From assembly GCF_024700885.2 (NCBI RefSeq), contig NZ_CP117016.1: 64,000 bases of DNA; one strand, given 5' to 3'. The position numbers were made by a program, and so were the translations under genes. Shown here in pieces: positions 29,359 to 31,114 of this stretch; the stretch's first letter is position 1; each line of letters opens with the position of its first letter. A model generated the notes under the pieces. That model saw only the letters and a program-made list of their open reading frames with translations. It searched no databases and had not been told where the DNA came from. This DNA is from Escherichia coli. GTDB lineage: Bacteria; Pseudomonadota; Gammaproteobacteria; Enterobacterales; Enterobacteriaceae.

Positions 29359-29513
29359 TGTAAGACATGAGATTGATGACAAATGCAAGACTGCCTGATT
29401 CGCCACACTTAGTTGTACTATAGCCTTTACCAGGCGTAATAATTCGTTTTCACCTGATTTTGGCCCACTTTGTGAATTGGCGATATATATTTATCCAGTT
29501 GGGAGAAGTGACA

Positions 29514-29645
29514 ATGACTCCAGGTAGAAATCGGTATGAAGCGCCCGACTCACTGTCAAAACCGATCGTTGAGAGTAATGACACTCCGGCGAACAGTACA
29601 CAGTTTACTCTGGAGCCATTCTCAATCTTCAAGTGGGATACCTAG
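29514..29645 (+). CDS. Hypothetical small protein, 43 aa (speculative)
   Basis: ATG at 29514 preceded by GGGAGAAG 5 nt upstream; encodes MTPGRNRYEAPDSLSKPIVESNDTPANSTQFTLEPFSIFKWDT; lies at the edge of the AT-rich island. Confidence 0.25.
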   Translation: MTPGRNRYEAPDSLSKPIVESNDTPANSTQFTLEPFSIFKWDT

Positions 29646-29823
29646 TAACTTTTCAGGGAAGTTATCAATATCTGTTTGTTACTTATTACCGTATTTATTA
29701 ACAATAATGATACTTTCTACCATGCGTAAAGGTCTTCGTAATAAAATGAGCTAAATTTGATAGTGAATATATTTTGCAAAGATTAGATTGTATCTTGTTA
29801 ACTCACAATACAAGGAATCATTT

Positions 29824-30894
29824 ATGCCAAATACATCTATTCACTTATCTCGCTGTAATATTTTACAAAATAATAAATTGCAACCAGCAGAAATTTACAA
29901 AGAATCACAACAAACCGCGAAACTTGAGTTTTTTTGCGATGAGTTTCTAAAAATATCTCAAAGTAGATACGGGTTATCAACTTCAGCAGACAGCATAGCT
30001 AATTTATTGGCTTTTTTCACGAAAGCCTCAGATGCAATTGATAGTATCAAGACCCAAAAAATTGACGTTCACAGTTATGGTTTCGTACCAATAAGACATT
30101 TTGTCGAACATGTCATAACGTATAAAAATGAATTTGCAGCGGATTATGAACCCTATACCCTTACCTTTACCCGAGGTGAAAACAACGAAGGTATTTTGAG
30201 TGTCGAAAGCAAAGAAGGGTTTATTTCACAAAGAACAATAAACTTAAATGAATATGAAACTGCAATTAACATCATCAATGAACATGTTATAAAAGAAAAT
30301 ATCCACAACACGGTCCAGTCACCGACAGAAAAAGACATTTCAAAAATAAACAGCTCTGATAAACCTTATAAAACCAGCAGTGAGGAAAGTATTAAAAGTC
30401 AACTTTACAGCGATCAAAAAAAATATACAGACCTGCTACTACATTCTGAGAAAAATACAGAATGGTACAAATACGCATCCTCCGTGGAACGCTATGATAA
30501 ATTCAAGAATTCTTCTAAGGAAATTAAAAATACCTACAAGCAAATTGTACAAGCGCAGAAAAAATTGAACCAAATGAAATACATCAATAAATTAAGTGGT
30601 GAGCTTATCGATATCGCCGACAAAAAGTTAGCACCATTAATAAATGATAGTTTCAGCTATACACGAGATTTCTTTGCTTACTCAAAACAGGAAAATAACA
30701 TCTTCACGTTTGATAATTCTAAGTTTGAAGATCCAAAGGAAAAAAAAGGTTTAATGGTACAACACAGCAATGGACAACTGGTTATTACTGGTGAATATTA
30801 TCCTGAAGGTGTGCAAATAGCATTCACTCAAGAACAATATAATAAATTAATAAGATACATTAATATTTTCTTTACTTTCCCGAAATGCGAATAA
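29824..30894 (+). CDS. Orphan hypothetical protein, 356 aa, in an AT-rich island
   Basis: Long ORF in markedly AT-rich DNA; ATG at 29824 preceded by AAGGA; Lys/Asn/Ser/Glu-rich hydrophilic protein, no signal peptide or transmembrane segment; no motif I can assign. Confidence 0.6.
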   Translation: MPNTSIHLSRCNILQNNKLQPAEIYKESQQTAKLEFFCDEFLKISQSRYGLSTSADSIANLLAFFTKASDAIDSIKTQKIDVHSYGFVPIRHFVEHVITYKNEFAADYEPYTLTFTRGENNEGILSVESKEGFISQRTINLNEYETAINIINEHVIKENIHNTVQSPTEKDISKINSSDKPYKTSSEESIKSQLYSDQKKYTDLLLHSEKNTEWYKYASSVERYDKFKNSSKEIKNTYKQIVQAQKKLNQMKYINKLSGELIDIADKKLAPLINDSFSYTRDFFAYSKQENNIFTFDNSKFEDPKEKKGLMVQHSNGQLVITGEYYPEGVQIAFTQEQYNKLIRYINIFFTFPKCE

Positions 30895-31081
30895 TACTTT
30901 ACAGTATAAACTGCAATACAATTTATTATTGAACCCAATTCATACTGTTTAAGGAATAACAATGCCCAGTGTTAGCTTTCTTAACGAATGAGTTTTACGC
31001 AAATATGTTGGCATCTTTTTTAACAGGATGCACCGGTTAATGAATAGAACAACCGGAAGTAGCATTATTTCGCTTTAGCAG

Positions 31082-31105
31082 AGGATGGCGCATGAACGCC
31101 ATCCT
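31082..31105 (-). terminator. Possible glpQ terminator hairpin
   Basis: AGGATGGCG-CATGAA-CGCCATCCT perfect 9-bp stem just downstream of the glpQ stop; no clear T-run, so weak as an intrinsic terminator. Confidence 0.4.
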
Positions 31106-31114
31106 GCAATAGCA

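Follow-up and report, generated by a model that had tools for sequence, protein, structure and literature searches.

A strain-variable AT-rich island between a LysR regulator gene and glpQ of Escherichia coli carries a 356-codon ORFan whose reading frame may be kept open by selection

Introduction

What is the AT-rich DNA that lies between a LysR regulator gene and glpQ in some Escherichia coli chromosomes, and is the one long open reading frame (ORF) within it a gene that the bacterium uses? The question is raised by a stretch of 64,000 nucleotides from an E. coli chromosome (contig NZ_CP117016.1; the whole stretch is hereafter the window), in which a first-pass annotation, made from the letters alone, had singled out a low-GC interval at 29360-31114 and a hydrophilic protein of 356 amino acids encoded there, which we call the orphan protein. 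Horizontally acquired AT-rich DNA is subject to silencing by H-NS (xenogeneic silencing). The ORFan genes of E. coli were reportedly described from comparative genomics by Daubin and Ochman in 2004.

Here we compare copies of this locus across E. coli and examine the orphan protein by homology, structure and selection analyses. The best explanation, to which we give slightly better than an even chance as a whole, is that the orphan protein is a dispensable cytoplasmic E. coli ORFan product, encoded in an old foreign AT-rich insertion and expressed conditionally, with a reading frame kept open by selection and residues that are hardly constrained.

Results

The island contains an intact long ORF that is not a chance ORF

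The two elements on which the argument turns are these:

29368-31082, no strand assigned: AT-rich island of 1715 bp, a presence/absence polymorphism, delimited by alignment of empty and occupied sites
29824-30894, plus strand: orphan ORF, 356 aa, intact

The interval is as AT-rich as the first-pass annotation had it. Between 29600 and 31200 the GC content is as low as 0.31-0.34, while the DNA on either side has about 0.5, and the island as a whole (0.339, against 0.507 for the window) has the lowest GC content of all 1715-bp stretches in the 64 kb. The main ORF with AAGGA before its ATG likewise held up: it is uninterrupted over 356 codons, and the AAGGA, at 29812-29816, stands 7 nt upstream of the start. 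The stop-free run to which it belongs extends over 375 codons, whereas the longest run in 2000 shuffles of the island averages 79 and never exceeds 162; G occurs at codon positions 1, 2 and 3 with frequencies of 0.24, 0.11 and 0.11, an enrichment at position 1 of the kind found in coding sequence. Because the run is far beyond anything in the shuffles and the G periodicity is of coding type, the orphan ORF is not a chance ORF, and together with the stop-codon avoidance and compensated frameshift described below these features identify a real coding gene. The island holds no second long ORF.

The encoded protein has a mass of 41.4 kDa, a pI of 6.5 and a grand average of hydropathy of −0.67, and is rich in K, S, I, E and N, in keeping with the hydrophilic character first read from it. 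Its highest 19-residue hydropathy is just 0.86, so that no transmembrane segment is expected. The first 22 residues are polar and include no acidic residue. An internal duplication was considered and rejected, two beta-rich segments of the protein aligning without significance (BLASTP E = 10).

The orphan protein has relatives in E. coli only

Database searches agree with the earlier impression that the protein carries no recognisable motif. There is no Pfam family for it (best E = 0.2), no match in NCBIfam or PHROGs at E up to 1, no defence match at E up to 1 among the 5027 models of PADLOC-DB 2.0, and no significant match in the PDB, where the best hit by sequence has E = 0.3 and a profile search returned none. 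Toxin and catalytic motifs were looked for in the protein and not found, and with respect to type III effector families it shows no sequence similarity to anything searched. AlphaFold2, run on a shallow alignment of 8 sequences, gave a model with a mean predicted local distance difference test score (pLDDT) of 39.9; a Foldseek comparison of that model with the PDB returned nothing under E = 0.3 and TM scores of at most 0.17, an outcome that we treat as meaningless. The structure prediction and fold search called for by the first-pass annotation thus supplied neither a confident structure nor a fold match.

Close relatives are found readily. A word-index search of 5.8 billion proteins returned 23 clusters, all at least 82% identical to the orphan protein, and all the clusters with a named source are labelled E. 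coli; a 408-aa chimeric protein (P0023), in which an unrelated N-terminus is fused to the orphan, is a database artefact. A HMMER pass over 1.84 billion representatives added fragments of the same protein only, at 75% identity or more; a marginal match to a cadherin-repeat protein (P0035, E = 1.5e-4) was rejected as compositional. At the nucleotide level, tblastn against phages found no copy of the orphan gene or island and a scan of viral contigs no copy of the orphan gene, and the single tblastn match among plasmids, NZ_CP141089.1 in PLSDB, is a mislabelled 4.9-Mb E. coli chromosome.

An exact scan of 100,044 species, one genome each, with an invariant 24-mer gave one match, on a 3.5-kb contig of a "Collinsella" metagenome-assembled genome (L022). 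A Collinsella origin of this contig was rejected: it is 98.9% identical to the window and so is mis-binned E. coli. Such a scan would miss a diverged copy in another Escherichia species, and the protein searches argue against the presence of one. Despite this exhaustive search, then, no homologue appears beyond a narrow taxon, which makes the orphan gene an ORFan; the possibility that it belongs to a widespread, already characterised family, named at the outset as a potential refutation, fell away.

Stop codons are avoided in the orphan frame

Selection was assessed on 14 aligned island copies, which differ by up to 7%. The ORF spans its full 356 codons in 11 of these alleles. None of the 129 substitutions creates a real stop codon, whereas random placement of the same types of mutation would be expected to create 7.0. 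The two other reading frames served as controls. In these, 9 and 13 changes create stop codons where chance predicts 9.2 and 13.5, an agreement that validates the counting method. When only the 8 alleles chosen by DNA identity alone were considered, there were again no stops, against 5.7 expected (P = 0.003).

Insertions and deletions point in the same direction: the 1071-bp ORF has undergone 4 such events, and the non-coding portion of the island, although only 644 bp long, at least 6. Further, the O157/O55 lineage carries a −1 change in an A8 tract at 30416-30423 and a +1 change at 30450, 29 nt downstream, so that 11 residues are altered and the frame is restored. The island alleles are old, with synonymous divergence (dS) of up to 0.14, like that of flanking core genes in the same strain pairs. 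By contrast with the frame, amino-acid constraint on the orphan protein is at most weak.

Variation and decay within the ORF

Variation along the ORF is uneven, and four segments stand out:

30260-30440, plus strand: hypervariable central segment, codons ~146-205, with two deeply diverged haplotypes
30416-30423, plus strand: first A8 tract, a frameshift hot spot; −1 in O157/O55, and the P0016 protein cluster fits +1
30617-30687, plus strand: longest invariant block of the island, 71 nt, encoding DKKLAPLINDSFSYTRDFFAYSK
30740-30747, plus strand: second A8 tract, a frameshift hot spot; −1 in L014

The hypervariable segment packs 49 variable sites into 180 nt, compared with ~5-6 in each 60 nt outside it. 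Its two haplotypes, SPTEKDISKINSSDKPYKTSSEESIKSQ and TLTDKDTPKITNSDKIYKFIHELNIRTQ, differ without any indels, and in codons 151-200 the proportions of synonymous and nonsynonymous differences are both raised (pS 0.225, pN 0.14). The segment is predicted to be a low-confidence linker. Its variability might stem from an old haplotype acquired by import, from relaxed constraint or from a mutational hot spot.

Integrity of the gene was scored in an even sample of 60 carriers. Forty-five keep the 1071-bp length, 13 have an insertion sequence, IS1, in the ORF, one is frameshifted and one has a partial deletion that leaves just the 3' end; conservation as an intact frame, which the first-pass annotation had made a condition of its proposal, thus applies to most carriers and fails in the remainder. 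The frameshifted carrier has lost one nucleotide from the second A8 tract; a −1 change in that tract in L014 yields a 309-aa product, and two database clusters of 309 aa (P0009 and P0010) stop at the same place. The 208-aa P0016 cluster has the sequence expected from a +1 change at the first A8 tract. Further truncated forms in the protein database all fit frameshifts and not nonsense changes, and strain TW10509 has an ORF frameshifted by an added T. Most of the observed frameshift variants trace to the two A8 tracts, which could be either simple hot spots of mutation or switches prone to slippage. As to the IS1 insertions, one genome (L007) has the element within the orphan ORF at about window position 30582-30597, and in another (L013) IS1 stands in place of everything from the middle of the MFS (major facilitator superfamily) transporter gene through to the last 200 bp of the orphan ORF.

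The island is an old polymorphism at a single site

Of 5426 complete E. coli genomes surveyed for its presence and absence, as had been proposed, 1052 carry the island and 81% lack it. The median is one copy per genome, on the chromosome only, and the position, between inaA/LysR and glpQ, is always the same. Carriers include O157:H7, O55:H7, strain 042 and the cryptic-clade strain TW10509. In K-12-type strains and BL21 the gene is absent from the LysR-glpQ site, which bears out the first-pass impression that K-12 has no gene at this position.

The window from 26900 to 31400 is 100% identical to E. coli strain 1190 and derives from the chromosome. The gene order is nrdAB-yfaE-inaA, MFS transporter, LysR regulator, orphan ORF, glpQ, glpT, glpA, in which the island is bordered by the following:

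27138-28328, minus strand: MFS transporter gene
28480-29358, plus strand: LysR regulator gene
31083-31104, no strand assigned: GC-rich hairpin GGATGGCGCATGAACGCCATCC, adjoining the glpQ stop codon and forming the right border of the island
31115-32191, minus strand: glpQ

The empty site is pristine. In L003, which has the MFS and LysR genes and no orphan ORF, and in the K-12-like L005, it reads GATGTGAGACA directly followed by GGATGGCGCATGAACGCCATCC, and the window has identical flanks with 1715 bp between them, the boundary being uncertain by 1-3 nt. The interval outlined by the first-pass annotation is therefore a real island, with its limits now refined to those given above by the empty-site comparison. 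Its left edge lies 9 nt past the LysR stop codon and its right edge is the hairpin downstream of glpQ; in strains with an empty site the hairpin accordingly falls 9 nt past the LysR stop, and in L003 just 41 bp separate the LysR and glpQ stop codons, with the same junction in L005. The hairpin may act as a terminator; it lacks a following T-run and for this reason was missing from our terminator scan.

The ends of the island show neither direct nor inverted terminal repeats and no target-site duplication, and within it there are no tandem repeats and no recombinase or integrase gene. The junction is identical across carriers. A degenerate copy of the glpQ 3' end at 30905-30966 was considered and rejected (z = 0.68 against shuffles). 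With neither repeats nor recombinase, a single locus and no true plasmid or phage copies, the island does not qualify as an insertion sequence, transposon, integrative islet or prophage remnant. Horizontal acquisition, which the first-pass annotation had read from base composition, is made plausible by the clean 1715-bp indel and its pristine empty site, though no repeats, integrase, plasmid or phage copy, or donor was found that would establish it.

A second, independent indel affects the same locus. O-island 97 (OI-97) of O157:H7 comprises z3494, encoding an MFS transporter, and z3495, encoding a LysR regulator (PMC10819331). The indel is a segment of ~2 kb that includes z3494 and the 5' part of z3495. 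K-12 lacks OI-97, and a fragment of the LysR gene remains there, a remnant of the deletion of this segment. We take this fragment to be the yfaH pseudogene. Across 27138-31082 the two indels, OI-97 and the orphan island, occur in all four combinations, with identical junctions wherever examined:

both segments present: the window locus and the O157:H7 locus
OI-97 segment without the orphan island: L003
orphan island without the OI-97 segment: for example, L010
neither segment: L005, K-12-like

Four combinations with identical junctions imply recombination between sites ~1 kb apart, and the simplest account is that each indel would have arisen once and then been shuffled by homologous recombination. 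In a further class everything between inaA and glpQ has been lost. Rough frequencies of the locus types, from an even sample of 40 genomes, are as follows:

full locus (MFS, LysR, orphan island): 15%
MFS and LysR, no island: 10%
IS1-disrupted island, no MFS or LysR: 5%
K-12 type (LysR fragment, no island): 50%
inaA-glpQ only: 17%

Two further observations concern this region. In E. coli O145:H28 RM13516 (L004), which has no island, the MFS-LysR-glpQ 3' region is 87.6% identical to the window and a different hairpin follows glpQ; this region looks like an import from a divergent lineage. Outside the island, the MFS-LysR intergenic region (28398-28479, minus strand) has a weak Rfam match to Yar_1, a Drosophila long non-coding RNA model. 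The match, at 23.7 bits where the gathering score is 50 (E = 0.054), is almost certainly due to chance.

The upstream part of the island is its best-conserved portion

Nucleotide diversity is lowest in 29514-29823, at ~0.02 against 0.056-0.063 at the island edges, and this part contains invariant blocks of 42-45 nt. It comprises two features:

29514-29645, plus strand: small ORF of 43 aa, MTPGRNRYEAPDSLSKPIVESNDTPANSTQFTLEPFSIFKWDT, acidic (pI 4.6), preceded by GGGAGAAG, a strong ribosome-binding site
29646-29823, plus strand: conserved region upstream of the orphan ORF, diversity 0.022, the presumed promoter and 5' untranslated region (UTR)

The small ORF is intact in all 14 alleles (nucleotide diversity 0.019). 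It is annotated by the Prokaryotic Genome Annotation Pipeline (PGAP) in one genome (WP_263943636.1) and called as a gene in L017-L019; its relatives are confined to E. coli, and it is altered in some strains. Its 3 synonymous and 8 nonsynonymous changes (pN/pS ~0.77) demonstrate no constraint at the protein level. Nor do the small ORF and the orphan ORF have the features of a toxin-antitoxin pair, since neither matches any domain and the two lie 178 nt apart.

The region 29646-29823 contains a 42-nt invariant block at 29732-29773 in addition to the AAGGA of the orphan ORF. Strains in which the LysR gene is without its 5' part, and hence without its promoter, can still have an intact orphan ORF, and we therefore place a putative promoter of the orphan gene itself in 29646-29823. 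A scan of the plus strand upstream of the orphan ORF for the sigma-70 consensus found no match, which weakens this placement. Rfam has no match in the upstream part of the island, and RNA folding shows no excess energy (z = −0.13 for 29646-29823, and −0.45). In island-bearing strains with an intact LysR gene, no hairpin resembling a terminator was seen in the interval from the LysR stop to the island, so that read-through from LysR into the island is possible.

Such read-through bears on a published deletion of OI-97 in EDL933. Judging by the primers (PMC10819331, supplement), one endpoint lies exactly at the left edge of the island, at ~29360-29399. The mutant therefore retains the orphan gene and has lost the LysR gene upstream of it, and any read-through transcription into the orphan would have changed as a consequence. 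The orphan islet is an indel separate from OI-97.

The gene is annotated in O157:H7 and mislabelled elsewhere

The orphan gene has been annotated for years in O157:H7 as encoding a hypothetical protein. In the Sakai numbering ECs3121 is the MFS gene and ECs3125 is glpT (PMC2241611); from the gene order between them, the orphan is ECs3123 of O157:H7 Sakai. The O157 allele is the RefSeq reference protein WP_001301786.1. PGAP labels the gene a "frameshifted" pseudogene in strain 1190, which has the window's allele, and in 042, ACN002, Res13 and AST85 (L001, L008, L010, L011 and L012), yet all of these alleles translate as an uninterrupted 356 aa, the intact form being of the ancestral type. The label is wrong because the reference is the derived, doubly frameshifted O157 form, which differs over residues 199-209; the window's KKYTDLLLHSE occurs essentially in 6 of 8 aligned alleles, with 1-2 substitutions in some. 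Pangenome and pseudogene surveys will consequently misclassify the gene. In the literature and supplements searched there was no study, mention or listing of it.

Discussion

The sequence of events that best accommodates these results would begin with foreign AT-rich DNA inserting once, long ago, at a point flanked by the LysR stop codon and the hairpin next to glpQ. This insertion would never have become fixed; it would have been inherited at one chromosomal site and shuffled among lineages by homologous recombination. Its 356-codon ORF would be a genuine gene, an ORFan restricted to E. coli and TW10509, and its product would be a soluble cytoplasmic protein of 41 kDa in which better-conserved portions, residues ~50-145 and ~212-356, are joined by the hypervariable segment. 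Selection would mainly preserve the open frame and hardly the residues, as might befit a dispensable accessory protein used under some conditions only, and several lineages would be losing the gene via IS1, A8-tract frameshifts and deletion. Judging by its AT content, the island would probably be repressed by H-NS.

Several observations weigh against this reading. Four of the 14 alleles had been chosen via full-length proteins, so that the set is biased towards intact copies, a bias that the restriction to the 8 DNA-identity alleles removes. The ratio of nonsynonymous to synonymous substitution rates (dN/dS, or omega) of the orphan frame, by the Nei-Gojobori method (NG86), is 0.57, against 0.64-1.06 in the five other frames; synonymous changes number 35 against 30.8 expected after correction for the mutation spectrum (p = 0.22); and omega is ~0.77 even without the hypervariable part (p = 0.11). 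For the ORF overall, omega lies between 0.57 and 0.84, never significantly below 1, whereas glpQ, glpT and inaA in the same strain pairs give 0.00-0.11 at a similar dS. Variable sites number 49, 31 and 42 at codon positions 1, 2 and 3, and the diversity of the ORF (0.052) equals that of the non-coding island edges. One quarter of the sampled carriers, as described above, no longer have the full-length ORF, structure prediction failed to give a confident model, and the searched literature gave no expression or chromatin immunoprecipitation (ChIP) data for the gene.

Much of this would also fit a functionless relic, a once foreign gene from which selection has gone and which has yet to be destroyed in most lineages: dN/dS is not significantly below 1, variable sites show no third-position excess, the ORF is as diverse as the non-coding DNA around it, it has been disrupted independently by IS1, by frameshifts in two A8 tracts, by the added T in TW10509 and by a partial deletion, and most genomes lack the island altogether. 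We nonetheless regard a relic as unlikely, if well worth keeping in mind, since it leaves unexplained why 5.7-7.0 expected nonsense changes are missing while the control frames sit at chance, why a compensating frameshift brought the frame back, why the ORF has fewer indels than its flanks, and why the frame is open in alleles as diverged as the deepest lineages of E. coli. A constrained element at 29514-29823, be it the 43-aa ORF, a regulatory element or an RNA, to which the long ORF would be incidental, would explain the lowest diversity in the island (0.019-0.022 against 0.05-0.06), the invariant blocks there and a small ORF with a good ribosome-binding site that is intact in every allele. 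It is the least probable of the accounts that we weigh: the small ORF has the pN/pS of ~0.77 noted above and is altered in some strains, the region has neither an Rfam match nor a folding excess, stop-codon avoidance in the long ORF is left unexplained, and a promoter and 5' UTR of the long ORF would account for the same conservation.

The first-pass annotation had offered as candidates a stand-alone defence or abortive-infection protein, a secreted effector and a toxin, none of which gained support. A stand-alone antagonistic factor of a new family, whether directed against phages, active in abortive infection, toxic or secreted as an effector, with the hypervariable middle as the trace of an arms race, would suit a strain-variable AT-rich islet between core genes and a fast-evolving protein with a hypervariable segment; the two A8 tracts could be on/off switches, and the polar first 22 residues, none of them acidic, give a weak impression of compatibility with a type III secretion signal. 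We consider it quite improbable. The PADLOC and PHROGs searches found nothing, none of the neighbours is a gene for defence or secretion, the island lacks mobility and is carried neither by phages nor by plasmids, and in the protein there was neither a motif of a toxin or catalytic kind nor a transmembrane segment. In the hypervariable segment pS is raised along with pN, and an omega of ~1.26 is not significant, so that there is no pointer to positive selection. The fuller version, in which an antagonistic or host-interaction factor of a new family would be maintained as an ancient polymorphism, with the hypervariable segment as an interaction surface and the A8 tracts as on/off switches, is very improbable. 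Were the orphan to prove antagonistic, it would be the founder of a new family; none of the present results argues for this.

On the favoured reading, of a dispensable ORFan with a protected frame, the gene can be set beside several known systems. With single-gene defence systems of the PADLOC kind it shares the general setting only, an uncharacterised single gene in a variable islet; it differs in matching no model, in lying outside any defence island and in having no prophage association. Like the O-islands of O157:H7, and OI-97 in particular, the islet is present in O157:H7 and not in K-12, at the same inaA-glpQ locus, and it begins directly downstream of z3495. It resembles H-NS-silenced xenogeneic DNA in its low GC content, 0.34 within a region of 0.51, and in its variability among strains; the island differs in having no mobility signature or identifiable donor. 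The orphan also compares with other E. coli ORFans, which similarly have no homologue outside a narrow taxon, are AT-rich with raised dN/dS, and are patchily distributed and often lost. The orphan differs from these in its length, 356 aa being much longer than the typical short ORFan, in a polymorphism as old as the diversity of the species and kept at a single site, and in its explicit stop-codon avoidance and compensated frameshift.

The orphan gene is thus a real ORFan of an ordinary kind, unstudied so far, and nothing points to a new mechanism. As a case study it would offer a useful and datable example of selection holding the frame of an ORFan open as the sequence itself drifts.

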